A stretch of 37,754 nt of DNA, taken from Candidatus Scatosoma sp. Lineage in GTDB: Bacteria > Bacillota > Clostridia > Christensenellales > Borkfalkiaceae. Positions 4,017 to 30,704 of this stretch are shown piece by piece (within the stretch, counting starts at the first letter, position 1; the number at the start of each line of letters is the position of its first letter). Below the pieces are notes generated by a model. It saw nothing but the letters and a program-made list of their open reading frames with translations. It ran no database searches and was not told where the DNA came from. The position numbers and the translations under genes were made by a program. Location of the stretch: NCBI GenBank assembly GCA_045127475.1, contig JBGVQH010000192.1, forward strand, positions 1-37,754, given 5' to 3'.

Positions 4017-4017
4017 T

Positions 4018-6538: not shown

Positions 6539-6606
6539 TAAATTTCGTTCGGTTTATGTAAATTTTGTAAAAAGTAAATATTTTTCCCAACTAATGCCCA
6601 AAATTA

Positions 6607-6635: not shown

Positions 6636-6734
6636 GATATCTGGACGAAAACGGGGAAAGTAGAAATCCTCCCCAAAATTCGCCTAAAAAGTACGAAACA
6701 AAATAAATTTTTCATATTTGGAGGAATTACTATT

Positions 6735-9605: not shown

Positions 9606-9614
9606 ACTCGCTCC

Positions 9615-10319
9615 TTATCTGTTGACTATCGTTTCCAAAATTTCACAGGCGGGTTTTCCGCCCTTTACCCCCTCAATCATAACGAGATAGGGTTTCATCG
9701 CGACACGTCCCCCCACAAATTGAATTTTTTTCACCTCGATATGCTCTTCGTGCAACGTATAACAAACTTCCGCTAAGCGGTCGGCGCGGTGCAACATGCA
9801 CAACCTCCCGCCGAATTTCAGGGCAAAACTCGCCGCCCGCGCAATCTCTTGCAGGTTCAGCGTGATTTCCTTGCGGCAAACGGCTTTTTCATACTCGTCG
9901 TTGTCAAAGCCCGTACCCGCACGCTCATACGGTGGATTGCATAAAATCAGCGAAAATTTTTCGTGGTACGCTTTGTCTATTTCCTGCAATCTGCCTTGTA
10001 CAACAGAAAAATTATCAAACCCGTTATACGCCGCCGTTTTTCTTGCCAAAGCGCAAAGACCGTCCTGCATTTCGAACAACGTAACGGGCATCTTCGGGGC
10101 TTTGTCCTTGTTCAGGGCGTAAAAATGAAAGCCGACAATGCCGTTCCCCGCGCAAAAATCCGCCACTACGTCCCCCTTTTTCCATTTGGCAAAACGGGAT
10201 AACAGCACCGAATCGGATGTAAAACGGTACAGCCGAGTGTCCTGCACGATTTTCAGCCCGTCTAACATCATATCTTCCAGAACTTCGTATTCACCTAAAA
10301 CAAGTCGTTCGTCCGCCAC
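9615..10319 (-). CDS. SAM-dependent N6-adenine methyltransferase, YabB/TrmN6-like (NPPY motif)
   Basis: Motifs DFCAGNGIVG (SAM binding) and LILCNPPYE. Probable GTG start at 10319 behind GAGAGGAAAA. The ORF track's longer form (to 10415) adds an implausible Cys/Trp/Lys-rich leader. Adjacent to rsmI, as yabB-yabC are in Bacillus. Confidence 0.75.
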   Translation of the reverse strand: MADERLVLGEYEVLEDMMLDGLKIVQDTRLYRFTSDSVLLSRFAKWKKGDVVADFCAGNGIVGFHFYALNKDKAPKMPVTLFEMQDGLCALARKTAAYNGFDNFSVVQGRLQEIDKAYHEKFSLILCNPPYERAGTGFDNDEYEKAVCRKEITLNLQEIARAASFALKFGGRLCMLHRADRLAEVCYTLHEEHIEVKKIQFVGGRVAMKPYLVMIEGVKGGKPACEILETIVNR

Positions 10320-10424
10320 CGATTTTCCTCTCTTTTTTCTTTCAGTATACCATTTTTTGCATAAAAAGTCAATACCCCAACCCCCTTTCGCATATTTTTC
10401 TGCGCCAACACACAACCTATTTTC

Positions 10425-14560: not shown

Positions 14561-15021
14561 TTATCCACCACACAAAAGTTATCCACATTCCCGCTTTTAT
14601 CCTCTTTTCTTTCCTTTGCAAGAAAACGGGTTTCTTGTCGGTTGCTGTCGAAAAATACGATTATAAATTCATACCGTATATAAAAAATTAAGGTTATCCA
14701 CTGAAAAAGTGGATAAAATAGGGTTGTCCACACCACAAAATTACTTTTTGTGGATAAACACCCCCTTTATCATCATAGAAAATTTTATAAAACCGATTAA
14801 AAATCGCTAAATCCCTTTATTTCCCCAACTTTTCTTTGTGGATAACTTTGTCCACACGTGCATTTTTCTTTTATTTTTTGGTGATTTTTTCGTGGATAAG
14901 TGTGTAAGAAAACGAAAATTGTGGATAAGATTCACACATCATCCCGCAAAAAACCACAGAAAACGGGCTTTTTATCCACAAACATTCGTTCTTTTTGTAT
15001 TCTTTCCTAAAGTTATCCACT
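14561..15021. promoter_or_regulatory. Dense DnaA-box cluster A (12 boxes) in a convergent intergenic region
   Basis: Perfect TTATCCACA/TGTGGATAA at 14579, 14749, 14837, 14930 and 14972. One-mismatch boxes at 14561, 14694, 14708, 14724, 14848, 14891 and 15013. Includes the 23-bp palindrome TTATCCACTGAAAAAGTGGATAA (14694-14716). The last box is followed by TAA-CCCGCC and an AT-rich tract. Confidence 0.9.
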
Positions 15022-16923: not shown

Positions 16924-17457
16924 ATGCAGAACTTTTTTTCGACCAAACGTCTTTGCCGCGCGGGGGTGATTGCAGCCCTGTACGTGGTGCTGACGTACGT
17001 GTTTGCGCCCTTTGCTTTCGGACCATTCCAGCTCCGACCTGCGGAGGCGCTTTGTATTTTACCCCTCTTTTATGCAGACGCTATCCCCGCCCTTTTCGTC
17101 GGGTGCGCGCTGTCTAACCTAATTTCCGCATACAGCGTTTTCGACGTCGTTATCGGCTCACTAACCACCCTTTTGGCGGCAATTTGCACCTATCTAATCG
17201 GCAGAATTTTTAAGAAGCCCCCCATACGTATCGCGCTCGGCGGCATTTTCCCCGTTTTATTCAACGCGTTTATGATTCCCGTAATTATCGTCATCATCTT
17301 CGGCGACACGGGCAATTATTCGTCCGTAACGGTGGCGTATTTTATGAATACCGTCAGCATCGGCGCAACGCAATGCATCTGGGTTTACGCCCTCGGCACA
17401 CCTCTGTATTATATCGTTTTACGCCTGCGCAAACGAGGCGTCGCTCTCTTCTTATAA
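16924..17457 (+). CDS. queT: Queuosine precursor transporter QueT (ECF S-component type)
   Basis: 177-aa polytopic protein. The N-terminal motif AGVIAALYVVLTYVFAPFAFGPFQLRPAEAL is typical of the QueT family. preQ1 riboswitch upstream. Confidence 0.85.
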   Translation: MQNFFSTKRLCRAGVIAALYVVLTYVFAPFAFGPFQLRPAEALCILPLFYADAIPALFVGCALSNLISAYSVFDVVIGSLTTLLAAICTYLIGRIFKKPPIRIALGGIFPVLFNAFMIPVIIVIIFGDTGNYSSVTVAYFMNTVSIGATQCIWVYALGTPLYYIVLRLRKRGVALFL

Positions 17458-17516
17458 CGCTGTTCTTCAACCGCGTAAACCCCGTAACAATCCCGCTATC
17501 TAATTTCTACATACGA

Positions 17517-17548
17517 TAAAAGACGGAGCTAAAAAGCTCCGCCTTTTC
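17517..17548. terminator. Bidirectional intrinsic terminator between queT and jag
   Basis: Stem CGGAGCT / AGCTCCG (17524-17530 / 17535-17541), loop AAAA. A-run upstream and TTTT downstream. Confidence 0.6.
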
Positions 17549-17558
17549 TGTTTATACA

Positions 17559-18533
17559 TTATTCTTTATCTTCGCCGTTGCCGCTATTTCCAAGGAAAAT
17601 CCCAAAGAAATCGTTGGACGGTTTCAGGCTCGTTCCGCCCGAATTTCCACCGCCCGAGGGTTTTCTATCGCGGTTAAAAGGTTTTTTACCAAAGCCGCCT
17701 TTGCCGCCTCTGCCGCGGTCATTTCTGTCGCCAAAGCCACGGTCGCGGCCTCTGCCACCACGGTGATTATAACCGCCCCTTTCGCGGCGATCTCTTTCCG
17801 TTCTTGCGGGAATTGCAGGTGCATCGGGGTCTTCTACGTTGTTAGGTACAATAACGATATAGCGGTTGGGTTCTTTCCCCTCGCTCTCCGTTTTCACTTC
17901 TTCATTTTCAGACAAAGCCGCATGGATAATTCTTCTTTCGTACGGGTTCATCGGTTCAAGTTGAATTTTCTTGCCCAACCGAACGGCTTTTGCAGCAAGG
18001 TTATCCGCCAGCTTGTTCAAGGTCGCCTCGCGGTTCTCGCGGTAATTCTCGCAATCCACCACAACGCGCTTGTAATCATCCCTGCCCGTATTCGCAACCG
18101 CGCCCGCTAAGGTTTGAATCGCGTCCAACATTATGCCGTGTTTGCCGATAATCGACGTCGTGTTTGCCGCCGTTACGTTGATTTCTACCTTTTCACCCTC
18201 GGAAACCAGCTCCGTACAAGCGGTGATATTAAGCAATTTAAACAGTCCTTCCAAGAAGATAACCGTTCTTTCGCCGTCCGTAGCGTTTTCGCCTGCCGTT
18301 TCAATTACAGGCGTAGCGTTTTCCGCTTTTTCAGCCTTTTCCGATGCCTCCACAACGGCTTCTGCAGTTTCCTTTGCTGCAATTTCTACGCGTGCCTTTA
18401 CAGCGCCGAACAGCTTTTTCTTTCCTTCTTCCAAAACGCGAATATCCGCATTCTCTCTCGTGAGCCCGAGCTCGCTCAATCCCTTTTCAACGGCTTCATC
18501 CACCGTCTTGCCCGTAAATTCGGTATAAATCAT
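17559..18533 (-). CDS. khpB: RNA-binding protein KhpB/Jag (Jag_N + KH + R3H) with a C-terminal RGG-rich extension
   Basis: Start at the ATG at 18533 (GAGGAGAGATAAA upstream). Jag_N-like N-terminus (GKTVDEAVEKGLSELG), KH motif IIGKHG, R3H motif NPYERRIIHAAL. Located downstream of yidC, as in Firmicutes. Confidence 0.9.
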   Translation of the reverse strand: MIYTEFTGKTVDEAVEKGLSELGLTRENADIRVLEEGKKKLFGAVKARVEIAAKETAEAVVEASEKAEKAENATPVIETAGENATDGERTVIFLEGLFKLLNITACTELVSEGEKVEINVTAANTTSIIGKHGIMLDAIQTLAGAVANTGRDDYKRVVVDCENYRENREATLNKLADNLAAKAVRLGKKIQLEPMNPYERRIIHAALSENEEVKTESEGKEPNRYIVIVPNNVEDPDAPAIPARTERDRRERGGYNHRGGRGRDRGFGDRNDRGRGGKGGFGKKPFNRDRKPSGGGNSGGTSLKPSNDFFGIFLGNSGNGEDKE

Positions 18534-18583
18534 TTTATCTCTCCTCGTTCCGCGTTTGTGAAACACGGAACTACATATCTCTC

Positions 18584-20131
18584 TTATTTCTTTTTATTCT
18601 TTTTGTCGCTAGGCGTCTTGTCCTTATTTCTGTTGACCGCCGCCGCTCTGCCCGAAAGCACCTTATCGCCCTTAGCCGTCGCACCTGCCGCCTTTTTGTT
18701 CGCCGCCAAATCCACCAGCTTATTGATTACAATCATGGACAGCAGCGAGAACAGGTTGCTGACAACCATGTAAATCGAGAATGCCGAGCTGTACATAAAC
18801 GAGAACACCGCGAACATACCCGTCATGATGATCATCATCATTTTCTGCTGGCTGCCGCTCTGCCCGTCTACAGACGAATATTTATTTTGCTCTTTCTGCG
18901 AACGCATGGATATCCATTGTTGCAGCAAAATCGTACCGATCGAGAGCAAAATCATGATATAATACCCGTTTGCCTCGCTCTTTTGTGCGCCGAGCTTGCC
19001 CGTTACGTTATGATAGCCCTCGTCGGAATACGCCGTAATCATCAAAATCGACTTGTCCCCTTCCTTACACGAACAAGACTTTCTTTCGATAATTTCTTGG
19101 CTGAAATTGCCATAGCTCAACACGGGGTGCTTATAGGTTGCGTCCACCGCCCACACGTTTTTAATCCAAAGGAATTTGGTGTCCTTTTTCACGGTGCTGT
19201 GGTACACTTCTACGACCCTGTCCTGCGCGGGGCTGACAAATTCTTGCTTAATCAACGTTTGCTGTGTTTTCAGCGTTAATTCATCCGCCGTCAACGTCGT
19301 GCCTGCCGCAGCCGCGTCGTCTTGAATACTCTTTTCAATCGCCGCAATAATCTCGCCGTTTTCGGAAGAATATTTATCCCAATTTAAGAAATAATTTTTT
19401 CGATTGCTGTTTTCAACGTATTTTAAAATATCCGCTTTGTTTGTTTCAAAAACGTCCTGATTGAAAACGTAGCTCTTTTCGCCCGTATCTCCGTCAACCG
19501 TAGGCGCAACCTCTTGCGTTACCGTATAATAAATATACTTGTCGTTTTCCGCAACGGTATACGTAACGGTCATACCCGTTACCGTGGAAACGCCCGTTTC
19601 TTGGTTGGTGGTCGTATTTTCCTGTACCGTCCACGTCAAATTTTCTTCATCAAATTCCGCACAGTTTTCCAACATGTTTTCGTTGTATGCGCGTACCATG
19701 GTATTATAATTTTCCACGTTGGAATAGGACGAGAACGCGTTGAACGCGTTGATGGCGACGATAAAGATCACCAAGGACAAAATCATCGGCAAGCAGGACG
19801 ACATCATGGAAATCCCGTTCTCACGATACATTTCCATAACCTTTTGGTTATACTTATCCTTGTCGTTTGCGTACTGCTTTTGCAGCTTTTCCATGCGCGC
19901 CTGATTTTCTTTCATTTTCTGGTTCTGCTTGCGCATGTTGATACGCTGGAACACATCAAACGGCATCGTAATCAATTTCAAAAGCAGGGAAAATAAAACG
20001 ATACCCACGCCGACCGATCCGCAAACCGTCGTCAGCCATAAAATAATTTTCCCGATCCAGTTGAGCGAAACGCTGTGCAGCTGCGAATAAATCGGCATAC
20101 CCACGCCCGCTAATACGTTCATAATTCCCAT
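18584..20131 (-). CDS. yidC: Membrane protein insertase YidC/SpoIIIJ, long form (515 aa)
   Basis: YidC core features: TM1, the basic coiled-coil hairpin RKQNQKMKENQARMEKLQKQY, MYRENGISMMSSCLPMILSLVIF, FLWIKNVWAVD, C-terminal TMs and a lysine-rich tail. Operon position between yidD and jag. Confidence 0.88.
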   Translation of the reverse strand: MGIMNVLAGVGMPIYSQLHSVSLNWIGKIILWLTTVCGSVGVGIVLFSLLLKLITMPFDVFQRINMRKQNQKMKENQARMEKLQKQYANDKDKYNQKVMEMYRENGISMMSSCLPMILSLVIFIVAINAFNAFSSYSNVENYNTMVRAYNENMLENCAEFDEENLTWTVQENTTTNQETGVSTVTGMTVTYTVAENDKYIYYTVTQEVAPTVDGDTGEKSYVFNQDVFETNKADILKYVENSNRKNYFLNWDKYSSENGEIIAAIEKSIQDDAAAAGTTLTADELTLKTQQTLIKQEFVSPAQDRVVEVYHSTVKKDTKFLWIKNVWAVDATYKHPVLSYGNFSQEIIERKSCSCKEGDKSILMITAYSDEGYHNVTGKLGAQKSEANGYYIMILLSIGTILLQQWISMRSQKEQNKYSSVDGQSGSQQKMMMIIMTGMFAVFSFMYSSAFSIYMVVSNLFSLLSMIVINKLVDLAANKKAAGATAKGDKVLSGRAAAVNRNKDKTPSDKKNKKK

Positions 20132-20208
20132 AATTTACCTTTTTAACTCAAACGAAAACCGTCCGTAATGCTTTCGTTTTCGATTTTTCGTTCTTTATTT
20201 CTTTGCAT

Positions 20209-20424
20209 TTACAACAACCAGCGTTTTGCAAAATATCGTTCGGGCTCAGGGTCATATCCTCCTTTGGAAAAGGGATTGCACCGCAATATTCTCCACGCCC
20301 CCAGCAAAATCCCAATTAGCGCACCGTGGTTGTTGATACAGCGCATCGTATATTCCGAACAGGTGGGATTATACCGACAGGTTTTGCGCGAAAGGTATTT
20401 TTGATAAAAACGAATCATTCGCAT
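20209..20424 (-). CDS. yidD: Membrane protein insertion efficiency factor YidD
   Basis: MIRFYQKYLS...CRYNPTCSEYT...HGALIGILLGAWRILRCNPFSKGGYDP is the YidD signature. Start ambiguous: the ORF is open up to 20535, which would overlap rnpA. Confidence 0.85.
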   Translation of the reverse strand: MRMIRFYQKYLSRKTCRYNPTCSEYTMRCINNHGALIGILLGAWRILRCNPFSKGGYDPEPERYFAKRWLL

Positions 20425-20507
20425 ACAAATAACCTTCCCCGGTTTTGAAAAAATATGCCGATAAAGCCAGCCTAAATTTTCAAAAAACAGAGAAATCGCA
20501 TTGACTT

Positions 20508-20825
20508 TTACAAATTCTCTTTTTTGATTATACATTGTAAATGCCGTTCAAAGGTTTTTAGTGCATACTCTTGCTCCACTTTCGGAATTAACAGAATATG
20601 ATACTTCCCGTCTATCTCCTCTTGTACGGAGCGGAACGCCTCGCGTAATAATCTCTTAATACGGTTGCGCATCACGGCTTTTCCGTGCCGTTTTCCCACG
20701 GAAATCCCCATCGTCATTTTTTCCGCCTTATGATATACGACGGTCAGCGACGGAGAAAATCCCCGTTTTCCCTTTTGAAACAACCTTTGAAAGTCCGCTT
20801 GTTTTTTTAATCGCAAATACTTCAT
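20508..20825 (-). CDS. rnpA: Ribonuclease P protein component
   Basis: 105 aa. LKKQADFQRLFQKG...GISVGKRHGKAVMRNRIKRLLREAFR (RNR motif). Downstream of rpmH. Confidence 0.92.
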   Translation of the reverse strand: MKYLRLKKQADFQRLFQKGKRGFSPSLTVVYHKAEKMTMGISVGKRHGKAVMRNRIKRLLREAFRSVQEEIDGKYHILLIPKVEQEYALKTFERHLQCIIKKENL

Positions 20826-20975
20826 TTTTCTAAATCAAAAGCTTTTTTAAGGGTGTTTTTTGTAAAAAAACAAAAAATTTTACCAAAACCCGCTTTCGCT
20901 ATTAAAATGGCAAATCCTTTCCCTTGCAAAAGGGAAAGGAAATGAATTGTTTTTTACCGTTTACTTTCAGAAAAA

Positions 20976-21110
20976 TTAGTGGGTCAGTCTTTTTCTACCC
21001 TTATCTCTTCTTCTCTTCAACACCTTTCTGCCAGCGGTCGTTGCCATTCTCTTACGGAAACCGTGTACTTTGCTCTTCTGTCTTTTCTTGGGTTGATAGG
21101 TTCTTTTCAT
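20976..21110 (-). CDS. rpmH: 50S ribosomal protein L34 (44 aa; below the ORF-track size cutoff)
   Basis: Hand translation of the minus strand gives [44 protein letters not shown], then a stop. AGGAGAAAACATT sits upstream of the ATG at 21110. Confidence 0.95.
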
Positions 21111-21179
21111 AATGTTTTCTCCTGATTTGGTTTTTTCTTTTTTTGGTGGTTATCGCGTTTCTCCCCACAATAACTCCCA

Positions 21180-21209
21180 TATTATACCGCAAAGGCAAGA
21201 GTTAGGTCA
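21180..21209 (-). promoter_or_regulatory. rpmH promoter (TTGACC-18-TATAAT) in the 158-bp dnaN-rpmH spacer
   Basis: On the minus strand, -35 TTGACC at 21209-21204 and -10 TATAAT at 21185-21180. Confidence 0.65.
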
Positions 21210-21268
21210 AGCAATTTTACTCTCTTTTTTCGCTTTTCTTCGGGAATTTATAGGGATTTTGCCTTTTA

Positions 21269-22378
21269 TCAGTTTCCATTGCCGGTGCGTACGGGCAAAA
21301 TTAAATACTGATTTTTGTTGTCGTTTTCGTTTTCAAGCGTGAACGGTGAAACGGCAGTATTAAACGAAAGTATTACGTTTTCTTCGTTGAGCGCCTTGAG
21401 CGCGTCCAAAATATATTTGCCGTTCATGGCAATTTTTAATTCTTTTCCGTTCAGCTCGGCAGCTACCGTTTCTTCTACCTTACCCATTTCCGAGTTTGCG
21501 TTGATGACGATTTTACCAAGTTTAATATCCAGCACGATTAAATTGTTTTTATCCCCTCTGATTAAAACGGACGCTCTTTCGATACTGTCTATCATTTCCG
21601 CACGTTTCACCAAAACTTTCGTCGTGAAATCGATAGGATAAATGTTTTCTTTTCTGACGAATTCGCCCATATATAAACGGGAAGTAATCACAGTATCCGA
21701 AACGCCTACCGACAATACATTTTTGTCCGCATAAATTTTCAACGCGTCGTCGCCGTCCAGCATACGGGAAATTTCAATCAACGTTCTTGCAGGACAAACG
21801 ATTTTTAAATCGCCGTTCTCTGCCGACGCGTCGCAGTACGACGTTGCCATTCTAAACCCGTCAAGAGCCGTCGCCGTCAGCTTTCCTTCTTTCGTTTCCA
21901 AAAGACAGCCCTTTAAAATCGGTCGGCTTTCGTCCGTTGCGCAACAGAATACGACCTTGGAAATCAATTCTTTCAAATCGTTTTCCTTTGTTTTAAAATA
22001 TGCCTTGTCCTCCCAGTTTCTTTCCCCCATTTTCGGAAATTCGTCCGCGGGTAAGGATTGCATGTACGTTTCACTGTCGCCGTATTTAATGATAATCCCC
22101 TTTTCATCGGAGGTAATCACAACCTCGAACGCAGAAATTTTATTGACGAAATCGGAAAACGTCTTACCGTTTACACACAATTCGCCCTCTTCCATAATCT
22201 CGGCAATCACCTTTTTTTCAATCGAAATCTCCCCGTCGTACGCAACGAGGGTAATTCCATCGTTTGCCGCCTTTATTTTTATACATTCCAAAATCGGGGT
22301 AATCGTTTTTACTGCACACGCCTTGCTTACCGTCAAAGCCGCATCCGAAAGCAAAGTTCCGTTACATACAAATTTCAT
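21269..22378 (-). CDS. dnaN: DNA polymerase III beta sliding clamp
   Basis: 369 aa. The N-terminus MKFVCNGTLLSDAALTVSKACAVKTITPILECIKI and the overall three-domain length are typical of DnaN. Confidence 0.93.
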   Translation of the reverse strand: MKFVCNGTLLSDAALTVSKACAVKTITPILECIKIKAANDGITLVAYDGEISIEKKVIAEIMEEGELCVNGKTFSDFVNKISAFEVVITSDEKGIIIKYGDSETYMQSLPADEFPKMGERNWEDKAYFKTKENDLKELISKVVFCCATDESRPILKGCLLETKEGKLTATALDGFRMATSYCDASAENGDLKIVCPARTLIEISRMLDGDDALKIYADKNVLSVGVSDTVITSRLYMGEFVRKENIYPIDFTTKVLVKRAEMIDSIERASVLIRGDKNNLIVLDIKLGKIVINANSEMGKVEETVAAELNGKELKIAMNGKYILDALKALNEENVILSFNTAVSPFTLENENDNKNQYLILPVRTGNGN

Positions 22379-22432
22379 CTTCTTAATCTCCTAAATCCGC
22401 ACTTTTAAAAGGCTACTTTTTTTATCTTCTCT

Positions 22433-22486
22433 ATTGTACCATATCCCCGTTTTTTTTGCAAGTCAAATCACGGTTTTTTATCCACA
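22433..22486 (-). promoter_or_regulatory. dnaN promoter (TTGCAA-17-TGgTACAAT) with a perfect DnaA box just upstream
   Basis: On the minus strand, TGTGGATAA (22486-22478), then -35 TTGCAA (22461-22456) and an extended -10 TGGTACAAT ending at 22433. Confidence 0.6.
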
Positions 22487-22493
22487 TTTTTCC

Positions 22494-23006
22494 TTATAGG
22501 AAAATTATTTTTGAAAGGGGGTGTAATTTTTGAAAAATTTTCACCGTATACGCAGCGCCGCCCTCTTTCTTTTTACAATAGGCAATCATCACTTGCGCGC
22601 GCTCTGCCATATACCTGTCCCGCACCTGCATACAACCCCTGTAATAGGCAGGTGCAAGGGTTATTTTTTCGTCCGCTTTCTTTAAAATAGAAAGATAAGT
22701 TTTTTTATCCTTTTCGCAAAAATATTTTTCCTGTCCATAGCAGGGAATACAAGCTATTAATTTAATCTGCGGATATTTTTTCTTAAATTTCAACACGGCA
22801 TTTGCCGCCGTAAGGTCAAACCCCTTTGCCATACCGTTGTAAAAATCGGTTATACCATCTTTTATCAGATTTTCTATTTCTTTGTTTAATTTCCGCGCGG
22901 AAAAATCTTCGCCTAGCTCCCGATGCCCGGTGAAAACACACGCCTTATTCTGTTGTTCTTCACCCTGAGAATTTGGTAAAATTGAGAGCTGTTCTTCCAT
23001 TTTCAT
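22494..23006 (-). CDS. SLOG-fold DUF1273 (YpsA-like) protein
   Basis: 170 aa. The pattern CVFTGHR...GMAKGFDLTAANAVLKFKKKYPQIKLIACIPCYGQE...RDRYMAERAQVMIAYC...GGAAYTV matches the clostridial DUF1273/SLOG family layout. Noticeably more AT-rich by eye than most flanking genes. Confidence 0.75.
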   Translation of the reverse strand: MKMEEQLSILPNSQGEEQQNKACVFTGHRELGEDFSARKLNKEIENLIKDGITDFYNGMAKGFDLTAANAVLKFKKKYPQIKLIACIPCYGQEKYFCEKDKKTYLSILKKADEKITLAPAYYRGCMQVRDRYMAERAQVMIAYCKKKEGGAAYTVKIFQKLHPLSKIIFL

Positions 23007-23028
23007 TTTCCTTTTTTTATTTGTTATT

Positions 23029-23056
23029 ATTATATAATAAAATGAAAATTTGTCAA
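23029..23056 (-). promoter_or_regulatory. Near-consensus sigma-A promoter of the SLOG gene (TTGACA-16-TATAAT)
   Basis: On the minus strand, -35 TTGACA at 23056-23051 and -10 TATAAT at 23034-23029. Confidence 0.65.
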
Positions 23057-23109
23057 GACGGGAATGCCATAATTTTTGTGTTTTTTAGAAAAAATTTTTT
23101 ACCCTTTTC

Positions 23110-23437
23110 CAACCGTCAGTTCCAATGATTATTATTTATTAAAAAGTATAAATAGTAGTATTAGTAGTAGGGCGGGTGGAATTGTGGACAAAGGGTATGA
23201 AATAATAAAAAAAGTCTGCTTTTATAAAGGAAATTTCATTTTTAATAAGGGTGGACAACCTTATATTTTTAGGTGGATAAAAAAGTGGAGAATTTGTGTA
23301 AAGGTGGAAGAAAAGGAAAAGGTTAAAAAAATAAAAATTTATAAATATACAAAAAAATATTATAAATATTAAAAATTAAAATTATCCACGAAGTTTGTCC
23401 ACACGGTGGATAACCTTATAAACAAAAGGGTGGACAA
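23110..23437. other. Core replication origin candidate (oriC cluster B): AT-rich tract, DnaA-trios, GC cluster, DnaA boxes
   Basis: Plus strand: AT-rich 23125-23152; TAG TAG TAT TAG TAG TAG at 23153-23170; GGCGGG at 23171-23176. DnaA boxes with one mismatch at 23183, 23272, 23382, 23395 and 23405; with two mismatches at 23250 and 23429. A second AT-rich block of about 60 bp lies at 23320-23381. Confidence 0.8.
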
Positions 23438-23510
23438 AGGTGGAAAGAACGGAAAAAAATTTATAAAAAAGATTGCTATTTTATAAGAAAAGTGTTATAA
23501 TAAAAGGGCT

Positions 23511-24206
23511 ATGGAAATTAGAACGGTAGAAGAACTTTATCAAAACGAAATTTTGGGAGAAAAGCGGGAGCTGTTGGAAAACTTCCGTCTTTTATTGCTT
23601 GAATACAATCAAAAATACAATTTAACCGCCATTTTAGAGGAAAAAGACGTTTATTATAAGCATTTTTTAGACAGTGCGGCAGGCGTTGATTTGTTCGATA
23701 AAGGGGCGAACGTTGCGGAAATCGGCTCGGGAGCGGGCTTTCCGTCTATAGTGTTAAAAATTCTTCGTCCTGATTTAAAATTTTCCCTTTTTGAAAGCGT
23801 TGGGAAAAAATGTGAATTTTTGCGTGCCATTGTGGATAACTTCGGGTTTACAGGAATGCATATTTATAACATGCGGGCAGAGGACGCCGCAAAGGATGAA
23901 AAATTTAGAGAGCGCTTTGATTTTGTTACGGCAAGGGCGGTGGCGCGTATGAATACGTTGAGCGAATATTGTCTGCCCTTTGTAAAAATCGGCGGTAAAT
24001 TCGTCGCCTATAAAAGCGGGGACGTCGCCGAAATTCACGAGGCGAAAAATGCGTATAAGGAATTAGGTGGTAAGCTGTCGCAGATAAAAGAATACGCTCT
24101 TCCCGAGGGATATGGCGAGCGGGTGTTGGCAGTTGTAGAGAAAATCAGGTCCACGCCGAAAAAATATCCGCGCGGACAAGGAAAAGAACGGAAAAATCCG
24201 CTGTGA
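23511..24206 (+). CDS. rsmG: 16S rRNA (guanine527-N7)-methyltransferase
   Basis: 231 aa. YNQKYNLTAI...HFLDS...VAEIGSGAGFPSIVLKI...FVTARAVA is the RsmG/GidB pattern. Confidence 0.9.
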   Translation: MEIRTVEELYQNEILGEKRELLENFRLLLLEYNQKYNLTAILEEKDVYYKHFLDSAAGVDLFDKGANVAEIGSGAGFPSIVLKILRPDLKFSLFESVGKKCEFLRAIVDNFGFTGMHIYNMRAEDAAKDEKFRERFDFVTARAVARMNTLSEYCLPFVKIGGKFVAYKSGDVAEIHEAKNAYKELGGKLSQIKEYALPEGYGERVLAVVEKIRSTPKKYPRGQGKERKNPL

Positions 24207-24233
24207 TTTTATAAAACTGTATAAAAAAGTTAG

Positions 24234-24262
24234 AAAAAGCGACCTACACATGGTCGCTTTTT
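24234..24262. terminator. Bidirectional intrinsic terminator between rsmG and ricT
   Basis: AAAAA-GCGACC-TACACAT-GGTCGC-TTTTT. The perfect stem is extended by A/T pairs. Confidence 0.8.
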
Positions 24263-24342
24263 GCATTCTGAAAGGGAGTATTGCGCGCTATTTTATGGAG
24301 AAAAGTTTCCATAATCGCAATACGTATAGGGGGTTTTTAAAA

Positions 24343-25209
24343 TTATTCCTCGTCCTCGTCTTCGTCCTCGTCGGGTTTTTGAGGTTGGGGTGCGGGCTTT
24401 TTAAAGCGGATATATTCTAAGGGGTAATCTTTCCAAATCCAGCCCCCGTTTCGATCGTCCATCTTCACCTTAACTTCCATACGCAGCATATTGACGGCGG
24501 CAACGATGGCTTTACCCTCGGGTGTACCTACTTCTGCGCCGATTTTCGGCATTTTTTTACTTGCCTCTGCATAATAATCGTTTTCGTAGCTTAAGCAGCA
24601 CATCAATCTGCCGCAAAGCCCGCTGATTTTGCCAGGGTTTAAGGACAAACCTTGCGTTTTCGCCATCTTTACGCTTACCTTTTTAAATTCGGGCATATTC
24701 CCTGCGCAACAGCAGATTCTGCCGCAAGGAGCAAGTCCGCCAAGATACTTCGTTTCATCACGTGTGCCCACCTGGCGCAATTCGATACGGTTTTTAAAGG
24801 TGGACGCAAGGTCTTTTACCAGCTCGCGGAAGTCCACGCGGGTAGAGGAAGTGAAATAGAAGATAATTTTACTGCCGTCAAAGGCGTATTCGCAATCGAC
24901 CAGTTTCATTTCCAAGCCGTGTGCAAGGATTTTTTCCTTACAGGTCTGCATTGCTTGCGGGCGCTTGGCTTGACAGGTTTCGTAAAATTCGGTGTCCTTT
25001 TCCGTTGCAATACGGATTACCGGTTTTAAGGGTTGAACAACCTCTTCTTCCTCTACTTCTTTTTCGGGATATGCCACCCAAGCGTATTCTAACCCGCGCG
25101 AGGTTTCTACCACTACGGGCATATTCCGTGTGTATACGTCCCCTTTCTTCGGGGCAAAATAATACAGCTTTCCGCCGTTTTTAAATTTAATTCCTACTAC
25201 TTTTACCAT
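24343..25209 (-). CDS. ricT: RicT/YaaT (PSP1 domain, Fe-S cluster protein of the Ric complex)
   Basis: 288 aa. Contains VVGIKFKNGGKLYYF, the PSP1 core, and the Cys cluster GGLAPCGRICCC...GLCGRLMCCL. Downstream of holB, as in Bacillus. Confidence 0.9.
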   Translation of the reverse strand: MVKVVGIKFKNGGKLYYFAPKKGDVYTRNMPVVVETSRGLEYAWVAYPEKEVEEEEVVQPLKPVIRIATEKDTEFYETCQAKRPQAMQTCKEKILAHGLEMKLVDCEYAFDGSKIIFYFTSSTRVDFRELVKDLASTFKNRIELRQVGTRDETKYLGGLAPCGRICCCAGNMPEFKKVSVKMAKTQGLSLNPGKISGLCGRLMCCLSYENDYYAEASKKMPKIGAEVGTPEGKAIVAAVNMLRMEVKVKMDDRNGGWIWKDYPLEYIRFKKPAPQPQKPDEDEDEDEE

Positions 25210-25233
25210 ATAATTACCTTAAAAAGTTTGTTT

Positions 25234-26211
25234 TTAATCGTTGTTTTTTTTGCGAATTTTCGCAATCAGAAGTTCGATACACTGCGGGAACACCGCATTA
25301 AAGGTTACTTGTTTTTCCGCCTCGGATAACCCCTCCTGCGCGTATAACAGCGCGGGGATACTATAAGCGGCGGCAACCTCGGTAAGCTGCGTTTTTTCCG
25401 CACGCAAAAGTAAATATTTCTCAGCGTTTTTTCCCTGCGTTTTGACAAGCAGCGCATCACGGAAAATCAGTCGTAAAAGGGACAAAAGCTCTCGCTTATA
25501 TTTGGTTTCTCCTACCTCTTTTACTGCCTGCGGCAGCTTAAAGGTGGGGGTACGTGTCAAAACGAACGCGTTTTCGAGCAGATGTTTATACCGTCCGCCC
25601 TCTAACATATTTTGCGCTTGTCCCACGTTCCCGTCTGCGCACGCGGCGCAAATAGAAATCGTTTCTTCATCATACGCACTCCCGTATAAACGCAATAGAC
25701 ATTGTGTGATTTGCTCGGTGGAAAAGGAGGGAATATCCAGCCGTTTCGTACGGGATAACACCGTCTGTAATACGGGAAAAACGCTAGTCGTTCCCAGAAG
25801 AAAAATAACCCCTTTTGGCGGTTCTTCTAAGAGCTTTAATAGCTTGTTTTGCGTCTGCGCATTCGCCTCGGCAAAATCCCCGACGACAAACACTTTTTTA
25901 TCCCCCTCGACAGGGTTTAACAGGCTCTCTTCCTTGATTTTTTCCGCATCTTCTACCGAGAGTTTTTTATCTTCCGCGGGAAAGAAAAGACAATCGGAAA
26001 ACGCTTCTTTATCGATAAGTTCTGCCCGCCGTTTTTCTAAAAGGGTGGCACACGTGTCGCAATCAAGCAAGATTTTTGCAAATTCTTTGAGAGCAAAACG
26101 CAGATTTCTTCCGTCGGGAAAATGCAACAAATACGCATGGGAAAGACGGTTTTCTGCGCTTTCCGTTTTGAGTAGCGTATACGATTGCGTTTGCTGTAAA
26201 AGAGTTTGCAT
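25234..26211 (-). CDS. holB: DNA polymerase III delta-prime subunit
   Basis: Motifs LSHAYLL, QNKLLKLLEEPP and TVLSRTK are characteristic of clamp-loader delta-prime. 325 aa. Confidence 0.85.
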   Translation of the reverse strand: MQTLLQQTQSYTLLKTESAENRLSHAYLLHFPDGRNLRFALKEFAKILLDCDTCATLLEKRRAELIDKEAFSDCLFFPAEDKKLSVEDAEKIKEESLLNPVEGDKKVFVVGDFAEANAQTQNKLLKLLEEPPKGVIFLLGTTSVFPVLQTVLSRTKRLDIPSFSTEQITQCLLRLYGSAYDEETISICAACADGNVGQAQNMLEGGRYKHLLENAFVLTRTPTFKLPQAVKEVGETKYKRELLSLLRLIFRDALLVKTQGKNAEKYLLLRAEKTQLTEVAAAYSIPALLYAQEGLSEAEKQVTFNAVFPQCIELLIAKIRKKNND

Positions 26212-26346
26212 AGTCTGCCTTTGCTTGGTATCGGTTTTGCGAAAGAGAGCATCTTGCCAAAAGCGTGCAAACTTTTCCGCATACTATATTATAGCATAGA
26301 TTTTTGAAAAAGTAAAGGCTTGAGCCAAAAGTTGTTTTGAGAATAT

Positions 26347-26373
26347 GAAAAAAGCGCGGAAAATGCTCCGCGC
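26347..26373 (-). terminator. Intrinsic terminator of the 26406-26852 gene
   Basis: On the minus strand: GCGCGGA-GCATTT-TCCGCGC followed by TTTTTTC. Confidence 0.75.
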
Positions 26374-26405
26374 CAAAGGAAATTTCGCTGCTATTGCATG
26401 CAAAA

Positions 26406-26852
26406 TCAAAGGAATTCTTTCCATTTCTTCTCAAATTCTTCTTCCGCTTGAATCATTTCATGGAGCAGCTCGCATACGGCGTCGCTGTTCTCGCAGCTGA
26501 TATCCCCCGCAGAGGTGCGCAGGGCGGAGATGCCCATCACCGTCCCCTGCAACATCATGTCTGCGATATGGGAGGGGGAATTGTCGGTAAGCGTGCTCAT
26601 TTTTATCGAGCCCCACATCATCATTTTTTTCATGGGGTTGGGTTCTTTGAGCTCGGTATCAAGGTCGCGTGCAAGCTGTGCGGCTTTTGCTGAAAAGCGT
26701 TCGTATTCCTCGTGCTGGCGAAGAAGCTCGGTTTTTATTTCGTCGTTTTCGACTGCGGGAAGAATGTTAGAAATCGATTGCAAAGCAAGGTGTGCGTTGC
26801 GGTAGATTTCCGAGAGCACTTCCACCGATTTTTTACGTGCGTTATTTTCCAT
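26406..26852 (-). CDS. Hypothetical helical protein (148 aa)
   Basis: Start set at the ATG at 26852 (AAAGGAGAAAATAAATTT upstream). The ORF-track N-terminal extension lacks an RBS. Predicted all-helical and charged. No family recognised. Confidence 0.6.
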   Translation of the reverse strand: MENNARKKSVEVLSEIYRNAHLALQSISNILPAVENDEIKTELLRQHEEYERFSAKAAQLARDLDTELKEPNPMKKMMMWGSIKMSTLTDNSPSHIADMMLQGTVMGISALRTSAGDISCENSDAVCELLHEMIQAEEEFEKKWKEFL

Positions 26853-26971
26853 AAATTTATTTTCTCCTTTCGGCGGCTGTGCCGCACAAAAACAGTTTGC
26901 GCAAGGCAATAAAAAAATATGTTTTTAGCGGAAAATATTTAAAAAATATACAAAAAACACGCAAAAAACGC

Positions 26972-27114
26972 TTGACGGAAAAGGAACGTTTATGGTATAT
27001 TGATAGTCGAGCCGATAGAAACGGGCTTTTTAAGTCAGCGATTTTTTGTTCAATTTTGATAAAAATCACTGCGCCTTGGGTATCTTCGAGACTGGAAAGA
27101 GGAGGTAAAATCTT
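26972..27114 (+). promoter_or_regulatory. rplU promoter (TTGACG-18-TGgTATATT) and a ~110-nt leader (possible L21-type leader)
   Basis: -35 at 26972-26977 and extended -10 at 26993-27001. The leader contains a long imperfect hairpin, CAGCGATTTTT...AAAAATCACTG. Its identity as a regulatory leader is inferred from position only. Confidence 0.5.
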
Positions 27115-27420
27115 ATGTACGCTATCATTGATAACGGCAACAAGCAGTACAAAGTGGCGGAAGGCGACGTTGTAAGAGTAGAAAAACTCAACGCAGCGGA
27201 AGGCGAAACCGTTAGCTTTAAAGTATTGATGGTTGCTGACGAAAACGGTATCAAAGCCGGCGCGGAAGTTGAAAACGCGAAGGTTACCGCTACGGTCGTT
27301 AAGCAGGACAAGGCGAAGAAAATCATCGTCTTTAAGTACAAAGCAAAGAAGAACGAACGTAAGAAGCAGGGCCACAGACAGCCCTTCACGGCAGTAAAAG
27401 TTGAAAAAATCGAACTCTAA
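27115..27420 (+). CDS. rplU: 50S ribosomal protein L21
   Basis: [18 protein letters not shown]...[20 protein letters not shown] is canonical L21. GAGGAGG RBS. Confidence 0.96.
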
Positions 27421-27529
27421 TTTTTAAAGAACGGTAACAATTTCAGCTTTTTGGCACAAGACTTCGCCCCTTTATAAATATTGTATAAAGCGCGGCGGCA
27501 AAAAATTTGATTTTTAAGGAGAAATAAAA

Positions 27530-27805
27530 ATGATTTTTATCAGTTTATTCGCTCATAAAAAAGGTACCGGCTCTTCCCACAACGGTAGAGATAGCGAAGC
27601 GAAAAGACTTGGCGTGAAGCGCAGCGACGGCCAGGCTGTTCTCGCGGGCAATATCCTCGTTCGCCAGAGAGGCACGAAGATCCACCCCGGTACGAACGTT
27701 GGTATTGGTAAGGACGACACGCTTTTCGCGCTCGTTGACGGTATCGTTCGTTATGAAAGATTGGGCAAAGACAAAAAACAGGCAAGCGTTTATCCCAACG
27801 CTTAA
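27530..27805 (+). CDS. rpmA: 50S ribosomal protein L27 with a 7-residue N-terminal propeptide-like extension
   Basis: MIFISLF|[23 protein letters not shown]... is canonical L27 from AHKKG onward. AAGGAG RBS 8 nt upstream of the ATG at 27530. No alternative start lies next to AHKK. Confidence 0.93.
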
Positions 27806-27824
27806 AATTAGCGGATAGAAAATA

Positions 27825-27863
27825 AAACCCAACTTCCCTTGTGGAGGCTTGGGTTTTCTTTTT
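27825..27863 (+). terminator. Intrinsic terminator after rpmA
   Basis: AAACCCAA (27825-27832) / TTGGGTTT (27849-27856) with inner pairing, followed by a TCTTTTT run. Confidence 0.7.
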
Positions 27864-27950
27864 GTCAAAAACGGAATTTTCGATCGTACTTTCGATACGT
27901 ATTGGGGGTTTTTGGTTTACTTTTCATCAAAAACGGAGTATAATAATAGT

Positions 27951-28865
27951 ATGGAACAGCTTTTGGAACAACAAAAATCGCAGATAGAAACAAATGCGGG
28001 AAAGGCGAAAAAGCCGTGGTTGGGGGTTTTGTATATCGTCATTTCGGCATTTTGCTTTTCGTTGATGAGTGTATGCGTGCGAAAGGCGGGCGATTTGCCC
28101 ACTTTCCAAAAGGCGTTTTTTAGAAATTCCGTCGCCGCGGTGGCTGGTTTTTTTATGGTGGCGAAAAGCGGCTCGTTTAAAATGCAAAAAGGCAGTTTTG
28201 TTCCCCTGATTTTGCGTTCTATCGTCGGCACAATCGGAATTGTAGGAAATTTTTACGCCATTGACCGCATGAATATTTCGGACGCGTCCATTTTAAACAA
28301 GCTTGCTCCCTTTTTCTCGGTTCTTTTTTCGATATGGATTTTGAAAGAAAAGGCAAGCGTGTGGGATTTGGTGTTTGTCGGGGTTGCGTTTGGCGGCGCG
28401 CTGTTTGTGGTTAAGCCGTCCTTTGACGTAACCGAATTTTTGCCTGCACTGATTGGAGTGCTGGGCGGTTTGGGCGCGGGTATGGCGTATACGTTCGTGC
28501 GAAAATTGTCCAACCAAGGGGAACGTGGTCCGTATATCGTCTTTTTCTTTTCGGTGTTTTCATGCTTGGCAATTTTACCGATTGTCATTGTACAATGGCA
28601 GCCGATGACGGGTTGGCAGGTGGCGTGGTTGTTGCTTGCGGGCTGTGCGGCAAGCGGCGCACAATTTTCGGTAACGGCGGCGTACGCGCATGCGCCTGCC
28701 AAGGAAATTTCGGTGTACGATTATTCGCAGGTGCTTTTTACCGCTGTTTGGGGTATAGCGTTCTTTGGGGAATTCCCTGATGCTTTAAGTGTAATCGGCT
28801 ACGTAATTATTATCGGCGCGGCGTTATCAAAATATTTTGCTGGGCGGAAAAAAACAAAAAAGTAA
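27951..28865 (+). CDS. EamA/DMT-family transporter
   Basis: Start moved to the ATG at 27951. About 10 TM segments with the duplicated EamA-domain pattern. 304 aa. Confidence 0.8.
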   Translation: MEQLLEQQKSQIETNAGKAKKPWLGVLYIVISAFCFSLMSVCVRKAGDLPTFQKAFFRNSVAAVAGFFMVAKSGSFKMQKGSFVPLILRSIVGTIGIVGNFYAIDRMNISDASILNKLAPFFSVLFSIWILKEKASVWDLVFVGVAFGGALFVVKPSFDVTEFLPALIGVLGGLGAGMAYTFVRKLSNQGERGPYIVFFFSVFSCLAILPIVIVQWQPMTGWQVAWLLLAGCAASGAQFSVTAAYAHAPAKEISVYDYSQVLFTAVWGIAFFGEFPDALSVIGYVIIIGAALSKYFAGRKKTKK

Positions 28866-28899
28866 AAGCCCCCTATACGTGTCGTAACGAAACAAAAAA

Positions 28900-28923
28900 G
28901 CGACCTGAAAAGGCCGCTTTTTT
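28900..28923. terminator. Intrinsic terminator after the EamA gene
   Basis: AAAAAA-GCGACC-TGAAAA-GGCCGC-TTTTTT (one mismatch in the stem). Confidence 0.65.
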
Positions 28924-29022
28924 AATGCCATTCTTACGATAAGTTTGTCGCAGTCGCTTACACTCCTTTGCAATGACAATGAGAAAAAAAGTGTGTCATT
29001 GCGAGCCGTTAGGCGTGGCAAT

Positions 29023-29310
29023 CTAATTGTTAATATCTTCCGCTAAATCAAGCCAGTTAGGGTTTAGTTTGTTTATTAATGCAATCTTTTTTGCCCTTGA
29101 ACCAGCTTTAATTTGTTTTTCACGTTCTATCGCGCTAATGACTTCTGTCGTAGATTCATAATAAACAAGCTGATTAATATTGTACCGTGAACAAAAAGAG
29201 CGGCGATCCACTTTTTGTTTGTGTTCTGCCACTCGCTTTTGTAAATTGTTTGTTACCCCTGTATATAATACGGAATGGGTTTGATTGGTTAAAATATAAA
29301 CGTAATACAT
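29023..29310 (-). CDS. GIY-YIG nuclease family protein (UPF0213/COG2827 type, 95 aa)
   Basis: N-terminus MYYVYILTNQTHSVLYTGVTNNLQKRVAEHK contains the GIY...YTG(YIG) motif pair. Single-domain size. Confidence 0.88.
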   Translation of the reverse strand: MYYVYILTNQTHSVLYTGVTNNLQKRVAEHKQKVDRRSFCSRYNINQLVYYESTTEVISAIEREKQIKAGSRAKKIALINKLNPNWLDLAEDINN

Positions 29311-29327
29311 TGCTCTATTTTTTATAA

Positions 29328-29428
29328 GATTGCCACGCTACGCTCGCAATGACGATGGCAGAGATTACCGCGCTACGCTCGCAATGACGGTGGCAGAGAT
29401 TGCCACGCTACGCTTGGCTACGCCAAAT
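29328..29428. repeat. Tandem ~35-bp repeats (about 2.8 units) right of the GIY-YIG gene
   Basis: Unit 1, 29328-29362: AGATTGCCACGCTACGCTCGCAATGACGATGGCAG. Unit 2, 29363-29397: AGATTACCGCGCTACGCTCGCAATGACGGTGGCAG. A partial unit 3 starts at 29398. Each unit can fold via ATTGC...GCAAT. Confidence 0.8.
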
Positions 29429-29462
29429 AGCAAGCTGAGCGCAATGACAATAAGGGGCAGAA

Positions 29463-30704
29463 TTATACCGCCTGCTTGTAAACCAAAAGAGGCGTTGCGC
29501 CGTCCGTCAAACATTCTTTCGTGATGACCACCTCTTCCACGTTCTCCTCGGACGGGATTTTGTACATCACTTCGGTCATGACGTTTTCAATAATCGTACG
29601 CAAGCCGCGCGCGCCCGTCTTTAAACGGATTGCCGTTTGCGCAATTTCACGCACCGCGTCGTCTTCCACCGTCAATTTCACGCCGTCGTAACCCACCAGC
29701 TTTTGATACTGCTTGATAATGGCGTTCTTCGGTTCGGTCAAAATCTTCACGAGCGCCGTTTCGTCTAACGGATCGAGGTTTACGACGATAGGAATACGCC
29801 CGACAAATTCGGGGATTAAGCCAAATTTCGTCAAATCCTGCGGTTTCACGTCGTCCAAAACAGAATAGTCCGCTTCGTTTGCTCCCAAGCGCACTTTGCC
29901 GCCAAACCCCAGCGTCGTGTCGTCCTTTCTGGACGAAACAATCTTATCCAAGCCCACGAATGCACCGCCGCAAATGAACAAAATATTCGTCGTGTCGATA
30001 CGTAAACATTCCTGGTTGGGGTGCTTTCTGCCGCCCTGCGGGGGAACGTTTGCCGTCGTGCTCTCGATAATTTTGAGCAAAGCTTGCTGTACGCCCTCGC
30101 CTGAAACGTCGCGGGTAATGGACACGTTTTCGCTCTTTCTAGCAATCTTGTCGATTTCGTCGATATAGATGATGCCGCGCTGTGCCCGTTCAATATCAAA
30201 ATCGGCGTTTTGAATAAGCTTCAACAGGATATTTTCCACGTCTTCGCCGACGTACCCTGCCTCGGTCAGCGTGGTGGCATCCGACGTGGCAAAGGGAACG
30301 TTTAAAACTTTGGCGAGCGTCCGCGCGAGTAACGTTTTACCGCTACCCGTAGGACCGAGCAACAACACGTTGCTCTTTTCGATTTCCACGCCGTCGTCGT
30401 CCTTTTTCTTTGCTTTGACTGCCGCGTTGATACGCTTGTAATGGTTATACACGGCAACGGACAAAACCCGTTTCGCCTTGTCCTGACCGACGATATATTT
30501 ATCGAGCTCCGCCTTGATTTCGGCGGGCTTTTTTAAGGGGACTTCCTCGGTGGGTTTGTCGTCCGTTTCCCACTCGTCCACCATAGATTTGCAGATGTCA
30601 ATGCACTCGTCGCAGATGCACGCGCCGTCGGGGCCCGTAATCAAACGCCGAGTTTCTTCTTTCGGTTTCCCGCAAAAAGAACAATGCTGATTTTTATTAG
30701 CCAT
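29463..30704 (-). CDS. clpX: ATP-dependent Clp protease ATP-binding subunit ClpX
   Basis: N-terminal zinc finger CSFCGK...CDEC, Walker A GPTGSGKT, and IYIDEIDK. Confidence 0.97.

Follow-up and report, generated by a model that had tools for sequence, protein, structure and literature searches.

Fixing the start of a bacterial genome and estimating growth rates from sequence coverage both rest on an assumption about dnaA and the context of the origin. The gene dnaA is the default indicator for origin prediction (PMC10225481), and a gene context of rnpA-rpmH-dnaA-dnaN has been described as conserved in Firmicutes (PMC7561715). The bipartite origins of Bacillus subtilis (incA/B-dnaA-incC) and Clostridioides difficile (oriC1-dnaA-oriC2) are the closest described systems to the locus analyzed here. 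The search rule for the basal unwinding system (BUS) asks for at least three DnaA-trios (NAN, consensus 3'-GAT-5') no more than 16 bp from a DnaA box, usually a tandem pair of boxes, with a spacer length that peaks at 10 to 13 bp (PMC8287927). Here we describe the genes and intergenic elements around dnaN and rpmH in a 37,754-nucleotide stretch of DNA from Candidatus Scatosoma sp. (GenBank assembly GCA_045127475.1, contig JBGVQH010000192.1, positions 1 to 37,754), the whole of which we refer to as the window.

The Candidatus Scatosoma clade has an origin of normal appearance to which dnaA is not adjacent, and its rpmH stands behind dnaN on the same strand. This order is real and clade-wide. 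As a gene order it is only moderately surprising; this variant of an otherwise ordinary DnaA-dependent origin is new, and the mechanism proposed for it is not.

Results

rpmH follows dnaN on the same strand throughout the clade

A map of open reading frames (ORFs) combined with Pfam scans gave the following minus-strand order around dnaN.

22494-23006, minus strand: ypsA (SLOG/DUF1273 family), between the origin and dnaN (Pfam YpsA, E = 4.8e-15)
22379-22493, minus strand: ypsA-dnaN spacer, with the dnaN promoter and a perfect DnaA box
21269-22378, minus strand: dnaN, encoding a beta sliding clamp of 369 aa (Pfam DNA_pol3_beta, with the N-terminal, central and C-terminal domains all present, E = 1e-23 to 1e-33)
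21111-21268, minus strand: dnaN-rpmH spacer of 158 bp, with the rpmH promoter and a leader hairpin
20976-21110, minus strand: rpmH (ribosomal protein L34; Pfam Ribosomal_L34, E = 1.5e-21)
20508-20825, minus strand: rnpA (Pfam Ribonuclease_P)
20209-20535, minus strand: yidD (Pfam YidD)
18584-20131, minus strand: yidC (Pfam 60KD_IMP)
17559-18566, minus strand: jag/khpB (Pfam Jag_N, KH and R3H)

An initial annotation of this DNA had placed dnaN directly upstream of rpmH in the same direction, and this is borne out. In a genome scan, the single-strand series dnaN-rpmH-rnpA-yidD-yidC-jag was present in 21 of 21 species representatives of the Scatosoma clade; the part from rnpA to jag, co-directional with dnaN and rpmH, has an identical order in all relatives. 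The DnaN proteins of these 21 loci are 69 to 94% identical to that of the window, and the loci that carry an informative label belong to Candidatus Scatosoma. The best DnaN matches are proteins of uncultured Clostridia. The window's own DnaN has no entry in public assemblies, and its S9 led only to contigs of 1 to 2 kb. Three distant outgroup loci recovered in the same scan (L031 to L033) have dnaA directly upstream of dnaN.

Since the window looks like metagenomic sequence and stops within gyrB, where many related contigs break too, a chimeric dnaN-rpmH or ypsA-dnaN junction created in assembly or binning had to be considered. The same junctions are nevertheless found in different projects and under different contig-naming styles (NODE_, k141_, k87_, Ga...) as well as in the 21 species-level genomes. 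The dnaN-rpmH junction recurs in independent contigs from JGI, ENA, Logan and NCBI with lengths of 2.4 to 225 kb, and conservation of the intergenic promoters extends across the junctions. Because the junction is shared by 21 species and by independent assemblies, we exclude misassembly, leaving an artefact with a negligible probability, and regard the gene order as a trait of the clade. The arrangement is lineage-wide and not peculiar to one genome.

dnaN and rpmH have their own conserved promoter motifs

The spacer between dnaN and rpmH had been said to hold an rpmH promoter and no DnaA box. Both statements hold: a promoter scan found the site TTGACC-18-TATAAT at 21210-21181 with 11 of 12 matches (-35 element TTGACC at 21210-21205, -10 element TATAAT at 21186-21181), and no DnaA box occurs in the spacer at one mismatch or fewer, the nearest flanking boxes being at 15013 and 22478. 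The promoter, in the form TTGAC-N17/18-TATAAT, and the leader hairpin that accompanies it are kept in 22 of 22 species. This hairpin lies at about 21149-21174 on the minus strand, has the form GTTATYGYGG-loop-CGCGATAAC and shows apparent compensatory changes in the distant relatives L020, L021, L025 and L027. An Rfam scan of the window returned no match at gathering thresholds, for the rpmH leader hairpin or elsewhere.

Upstream of dnaN, the spacer that separates it from ypsA contains a promoter of its own (TTGCAA/TTGACT ... TACAAT, at about 22466-22433), which is kept in about 20 species as TTGCTTGCAAAAAAA-N-TATGGTAcAAT, independent of the gene that lies upstream. The perfect DnaA box at 22478-22486, just upstream of dnaN, is conserved in the closest relatives only. 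Promoter motifs were also found for ypsA (a perfect TTGACA-16-TATAAT at 23056-23029, 12 of 12 matches) and for rsmG (TTGCTA-17-TATAAT at 23473-23501). Judged by these motifs, dnaN and rpmH are predicted to be separate transcription units, each with its own conserved promoter.

A DnaA-trio module lies between ypsA and rsmG

The window contains 26 DnaA boxes, compared to 6.3 expected, and none of 100 shuffles reached this number. The boxes form two clusters, one of which (cluster B) is located in the 504-bp gap between ypsA and rsmG (23007-23510; 25% GC) and is made up as follows.

23100-23460: predicted oriC core, comprising the AT-rich tract, trios, G-rich spacer and boxes
about 23100-23152: putative AT-rich unwinding tract (GC 0.26 versus 0.46 for the window; assigned by composition only)
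23153-23170: six DnaA-trios, TAGTAGTATTAGTAGTAG (TAG TAG TAT TAG TAG TAG)
between the DnaA-trios and the tandem boxes: G-rich spacer
23175-23191: abutting tandem boxes, GGTGGAATT (weaker) and TGTGGACAA (strong, 23183-23191)
23272-23280, 23382-23390, 23395-23403 and 23405-23413: further boxes
23310-23381: second AT tract, between two box groups (GC 0.08)
23511-24206, plus strand: rsmG (gidB; Pfam GidB, E = 1.6e-44)

Five boxes at one mismatch or fewer fall within 23183-23413, together with weaker GTGGA repeats. With six trios, the first of them 12 bp away from the strong box, the module satisfies the published trio rule (PMC8287927). The trios and boxes are conserved in 16 species while their flanks diverge, and the AT-richness beside the trios is conserved in 16 species as well. 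In all Scatosoma-type loci, 267 to 341 bp separate rsmG from the module on its box side, and rsmG holds the place taken by dnaA in canonical origins. The core of the second AT tract, ATAAATATACAAAAA, recurs in nearly all of the 16 species, and an accessory protein might bind to this tract.

The cumulative GC skew of the window reaches its minimum at 22965, next to the module. Among 13 loci, for which skew was calculated from pieces of 20 to 38 kb and is supportive but not conclusive, the sign changed from negative left of the module to positive right of it in every case, and the minimum lay within about 0.5 kb of the module in 10. Box cluster, trios, AT tract and skew switch, the features of a DnaA-dependent oriC with a BUS, thus all coincide at what we predict to be the origin.

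As an independent control, public metagenome contigs were scanned for a signature consisting of 14 trio bases, 3 to 8 spacer bases and two GTGGA cores. Of 39 matches, 22 were 58 to 359 bp downstream of a dnaA gene reading toward them, mostly with dnaN on the opposite side, and 2 abutted dnaN at a contig end. Another 8 were of the Scatosoma type, with rsmG at the position of dnaA and ypsA on the trio side, and the remaining 7 had different surroundings, which in at least four cases lacked dnaA. By its sequence and its usual surroundings, the module appears to be an unwinding site of the oriC2/incC type, which is normally located between dnaA and dnaN. Since elsewhere the signature usually lies downstream of dnaA, the break in Scatosoma would fall between dnaA and the box array.

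The matches without dnaA on the box side of the signature come from other lineages (L051, L052, L057 and L071); in L046, also from another lineage, the contig ends on the box side. Dissociation of origin and dnaA is therefore not unique to Scatosoma. L052, L057 and L071 share a neighboring gene with a GTAYDLFVSL motif.

No dnaA gene was found in the vicinity of the origin

The statement of the initial annotation that no reading frame of the window has DnaA features was confirmed in two ways. Pfam scans of the approximately 50 ORFs of the 37.7-kb window gave no Bac_DnaA or Bac_DnaA_C match, and six-frame tblastn searches of the window with E. coli DnaA (E <= 10) and Clostridia DnaA (E <= 1e-3) found nothing. 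Because the same queries recover dnaA in the outgroup loci at 35 to 47% identity, the negative result in the window, with 21 kb of sequence on the left of dnaN and 15 kb on its right, is meaningful. Several genes at some distance from dnaN are also relevant here.

24343-25209, minus strand: ricT (PSP1; Pfam scan)
25234-26211, minus strand: holB (Pfam scan)
37306-37752, plus strand: 5' part of gyrB (149 codons), truncated where the window ends (translation; 59% identity to E. coli GyrB by tblastn, E = 2e-45)

In line with what had been reported for this DNA, gyrB is 15 kb away on the other strand, recF is not detectable in the window by tblastn, ricT is followed by the end of the rsmG gene and not by yabA, and mnmE, mnmG and parAB are missing from all scanned ORFs. 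Upstream of gyrB lies an AraC-family gene (Pfam), and neither recF nor dnaA.

A comparison of synteny in the relatives gave the same picture: the dnaN-rpmH order recurs, and no DnaA-like sequence occurs within 10 kb on either side of dnaN in any of the 21 Scatosoma-clade species. Searches by tblastn with the DnaA proteins of E. coli and of the Clostridia locus L038 (see below) had no match in any fetched Scatosoma locus. Both dnaA and recF were missing within 10 kb of gyrB-gyrA in four relatives, reached via GyrA homologues, and at one further dnaN locus on a 167-kb contig. Homologues of the GyrB N terminus led to contig-end fragments and two genomes from outside the clade only, and to no dnaA of the clade.

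Several candidates for a remnant of dnaA or a divergent initiator were considered and rejected. Insertions of 2 kb between cvpA and the second box cluster in two relatives (L022 and L023) encode a lipoprotein-like ORF of 525 aa rather than dnaA remnants. A 943-aa ORF without Pfam match (938-3769, minus strand) combines a lipoprotein-type signal, MKKGTKILSLAAALTLGVSTLTFTGC, counted from an internal Met, with a C-terminal transmembrane segment and an acidic tail. Antisense ORFs without Pfam match were likewise discarded as divergent initiators.

One reading of these negative results is that the clade has lost dnaA, the boxes being bound by another protein or initiation being independent of DnaA. 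It would account for the failure to find dnaA in the window, around dnaN in 21 species and around gyrA in four relatives, and recF is missing from all of those regions likewise. However, the sequence covered amounts to only about 60 to 90 kb of each, much larger, genome, and two arrays of consensus TTATCCACA boxes and the trio module are conserved while DnaN is only 69 to 94% identical and the flanking intergenic DNA has diverged. Such conservation amid diverging flanks is a signature of selection by DnaA. To our knowledge, loss of dnaA is limited to a few endosymbionts and cyanobacteria. We therefore give loss of dnaA very little credence. Because consensus boxes and trios are conserved, a functional DnaA almost certainly acts in trans from a gene elsewhere, and dnaA would have been displaced rather than lost.

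The gene order around the origin has been rearranged

Comparison of the window with the sister species SIG391 (L010) revealed an 11.4-kb inversion (17569-28923) with breakpoints at 17436-17568 and 28924-29467. Its midpoint, at about 23.3 kb, coincides with the origin module; the inversion is symmetric about oriC, as inversions around an origin are expected to be. Some relatives have the order ypsA-rsmG-dnaN instead of rsmG/ypsA-dnaN, and in L013, L017 and L029 neither ypsA nor rsmG was present in the fetched sequence upstream of dnaN. The suggestion that the region is a reshuffled set of origin-proximal genes with the initiator gene displaced thus gains support from the 21 shared junctions, the local absence of dnaA, the inversion and the alternative orders, with displacement itself being the part that we infer.

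Another arrangement was found in L038 (GCA_017468145.1, JAFUJT010000001.1), where positions 934-6994 read dnaA-dnaN-(221-aa gene)-rpmH-rnpA-yidD-yidC-jag-mnmE, all co-directional. L038 is another Clostridia metagenome-assembled genome (MAG), with tiny intergenic gaps and few DnaA boxes. Its order indicates that a single inversion can yield the sequence dnaN-rpmH with dnaA retained, which suggests a two-step history for the gene order of Scatosoma.

A second DnaA-box cluster is kept near the origin

The other DnaA-box cluster of the window (cluster A) is as follows.

14561-15021: cluster A, with 12 DnaA boxes (5 perfect), within the 661 bp that separate gerAC and cvpA, two convergent genes, at their 3' ends

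Cluster A, with a GC content of 0.34, holds more boxes than the origin itself, from which it is separated by 8.1 kb. It contains no DnaA-trio module, and the skew keeps its sign across it. Being located between convergent 3' ends, it has no obvious promoter role. It is kept in 11 relatives with 8 to 15 boxes, always 6.8 to 11.4 kb from oriC, despite different genes in between. Even in a genome where gerA has been shifted about 47 kb away, cluster A stays by the cvpA block, about 10 kb from oriC. No cluster A was present within the fetched flank of L013, L015 to L017 and L029.

Inside cluster A (14646-14680 of the window), Spo0A-box-like heptamers (TGTCGAA / TTCGACA) are found by an ATAAAT(T)TAT-type motif. 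They recur in most relatives, as seen in the orthologous cluster A of L001, L014, L018, L021, L022, L026 and L027, and one TGTCGAA copy appears to be positionally conserved. In the window as a whole the TGTCGAA box is not enriched (3 observed versus 5.9 expected). The heptamer may link initiation control to sporulation.

As the region of highest DnaA-box density in the window, and one of low GC content, cluster A rather than cluster B might be taken for the replication origin. We consider this very improbable, given that it lacks the trio module, that the skew is negative on both of its sides in the window and of one sign across it in relatives, that the SIG391 inversion is centered on cluster B, and that cluster B carries the signature which marks dnaA-dnaN origins elsewhere.

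Alternatively, the two clusters might be the halves of a split bipartite origin. Cluster A would then be a displaced oriC1 that must cooperate with the trio-bearing cluster B by a DnaA loop of about 7 to 12 kb, spanning some ten genes and formed by DnaA from a distant locus. In B. subtilis and C. difficile, such cooperation of oriC1 and oriC2 spans the dnaA gene of 1.4 kb, which DnaA loops out. Two box clusters with an unwinding element in cluster B only are indeed what a bipartite origin has. The boxes of cluster A are more numerous and better than those of oriC, they lie where a promoter role is not apparent, and their distance from cluster B has been kept in at least 11 species despite different genes between, even where gerA has moved away. 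Moreover, unwinding of C. difficile oriC2 in vitro also needs oriC1 (PMC7561715). Yet the clusters are separated by 7 to 10 unrelated genes with no dnaA between them, and no bipartite origin with halves 7 to 12 kb apart is known. Origin-symmetric inversions leave the distance between a sequence and the origin unchanged even where the two are not functionally linked, DnaA-box clusters close to the B. subtilis origin only modulate the timing of initiation (PMC3245932), and five loci lack cluster A in their fetched flanks. A split origin of this kind, which would be a Firmicute origin with oriC1, dnaA and oriC2 all physically uncoupled, seems unlikely to us.

A dense array near oriC and outside the unwinding origin, as cluster A is, fits the description of a non-origin DnaA-box cluster. 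Most probably it serves as a reservoir or regulator that binds DnaA near the origin, comparable to the DnaA-box clusters of B. subtilis, or possibly as a remote oriC1-like partner.

Other features of the neighborhood

The closest public homologues of the gyrB fragment are contig-end pieces too (115 to 253 aa), which suggests that an assembly break inside gyrB is recurrent in this species group; a repeat, a paralogue or strain variation are possible causes. Within the rpmH operon, Jag has a long Arg/Gly-rich tail at its C terminus. YidC is unusually long (515 aa), its 60KD_IMP domain being split by an insertion of about 250 aa, and is the least conserved protein of the operon (46 to 72% identity in relatives).

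A small conserved gene without Pfam match lies upstream of holB (26406-26909, minus strand; 148 aa as called in relatives) and adjoins rplU/holB in all close relatives. In B. subtilis, the neighborhood of holB reads holB-yaaT-yabA-yabB-yazA-yabC. Genes of this type are scattered in the window: holB-ricT (24343-26211) is found beside the origin, yabB-like MTS and rsmI-like TP_methylase genes at 8802-10415 and a yazA-like GIY-YIG gene at 29023-29310. No yabA was found in the window.

Discussion

The explanation that we favor is that the ancestral Firmicute block rnpA-rpmH / oriC1 / dnaA / oriC2 / dnaN was broken up in the spore-forming gut clade Candidatus Scatosoma. The oriC2-like unwinding half, with its boxes, G-rich spacer, trios and AT-rich tract, would have survived between ypsA and rsmG. 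On its trio and AT-rich side dnaN would have stayed, now behind ypsA and with its own promoter, and the rpmH-rnpA-yidD-yidC-jag operon, equipped with a strong promoter of its own, would have come to follow dnaN immediately and co-directionally. Both dnaN and the genes of the rpmH operon would thus be transcribed co-directionally with the leftward fork. The breakpoint is best placed where rsmG now sits, with the box array on one side and what used to be the 3' end of dnaA on the other. At initiation, DnaA produced from a gene elsewhere would bind the tandem boxes at 23175-23191 in trans, oligomerize onto the TAG/TAT trios and open the AT-rich tract at about 23.10 to 23.15 kb, where bidirectional replication would then start.

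Some of our observations weigh against this scenario. The dnaA gene of the clade, from which DnaA would act in trans, was never found, and all genomes are MAGs, in which dnaA on an unbinned contig is indistinguishable from a true absence. In 3 of the 13 loci the skew minimum is 0.5 to 4 kb off the module, and gene orientation confounds the skew. Evidence for origin function, and for unwinding at 23.10 to 23.15 kb, is computational throughout. Taken as a whole, with the ancestral block broken up, an oriC2-like module kept and DnaA supplied in trans, we nevertheless consider the scenario quite likely to be correct.

A whole clade of abundant gut Clostridia, sizeable and uncultured, thus keeps a textbook unwinding module that is unlinked from dnaA, and origin callers relying on dnaA would misplace the origin in Scatosoma MAGs. 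The clade also offers a natural experiment on whether linkage of dnaA and oriC, co-transcription of dnaA and dnaN, and proximity of oriC1 and oriC2 matter for the control of initiation in a spore-former. Boxes, trios and AT-rich tract are ordinary, and dnaA-unlinked origins are already known in other phyla; the finding is noteworthy and leaves the accepted picture of initiation unchanged.

Among individual loci, L038 resembles the window in having the rpmH operon behind dnaN and co-directional with it. It differs in that dnaA is retained directly upstream of dnaN and in the 221-aa gene that parts dnaN from rpmH. Its DnaN is only 40% identical, so its order may be a convergent event and not an intermediate.

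Cluster A can be compared to the DnaA-box clusters of B. subtilis (PMC3245932) and to datA of E. coli, with which it shares the character of a dense non-origin array near oriC without an unwinding element. Several of the B. subtilis clusters regulate neighboring promoters, whereas cluster A lies between convergent 3' ends and its function is putative. It further differs from these arrays in having more boxes than the origin itself.

The similarity to the bipartite Firmicute origins of B. subtilis and C. difficile extends to the consensus TTATCCACA-type boxes, to the module of tandem box, G-rich spacer, trios and AT-rich tract oriented toward dnaN, and to a second box cluster without trios. The trio sequences of C. 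difficile (CTACTACTATTACTACTA) and Scatosoma (CTACTACTAATACTACTA) are closely alike. In Scatosoma, however, rsmG takes the place of dnaA, which is not found between the clusters or beside dnaN, and ypsA has come to separate the unwinding tract from dnaN, so that ypsA and rsmG flank the module. Instead of diverging from dnaA together with rnpA, rpmH follows dnaN at 158 bp on the same strand. The two box clusters, about 1.4 kb apart across the 1.4-kb dnaA in the described origins, are separated by 7 to 12 kb.

In being unlinked from dnaA, the Scatosoma origin also resembles that of E. coli and other enterobacteria, which lies about 42 kb from dnaA in the interval from mnmG/gidA to mioC, with rsmG/gidB being part of the gid operon. 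Both origins lie beside a gid-operon gene that is transcribed away from them, and DnaA acts in trans in E. coli as we propose for Scatosoma, where about 100 bp separate the last box from the start of rsmG and the distance to dnaA exceeds 14 to 21 kb. Unlike the enterobacterial oriC, the Scatosoma origin has no GATC (Dam/SeqA) sites, with none in the 504 bp of 23007-23510 and none in cluster A. In Scatosoma dnaN stays near the origin and dnaA does not, and rpmH has lost the divergent orientation to dnaA that it keeps in E. coli. The Scatosoma host is a Firmicute, and its rearrangement evidently occurred independently.

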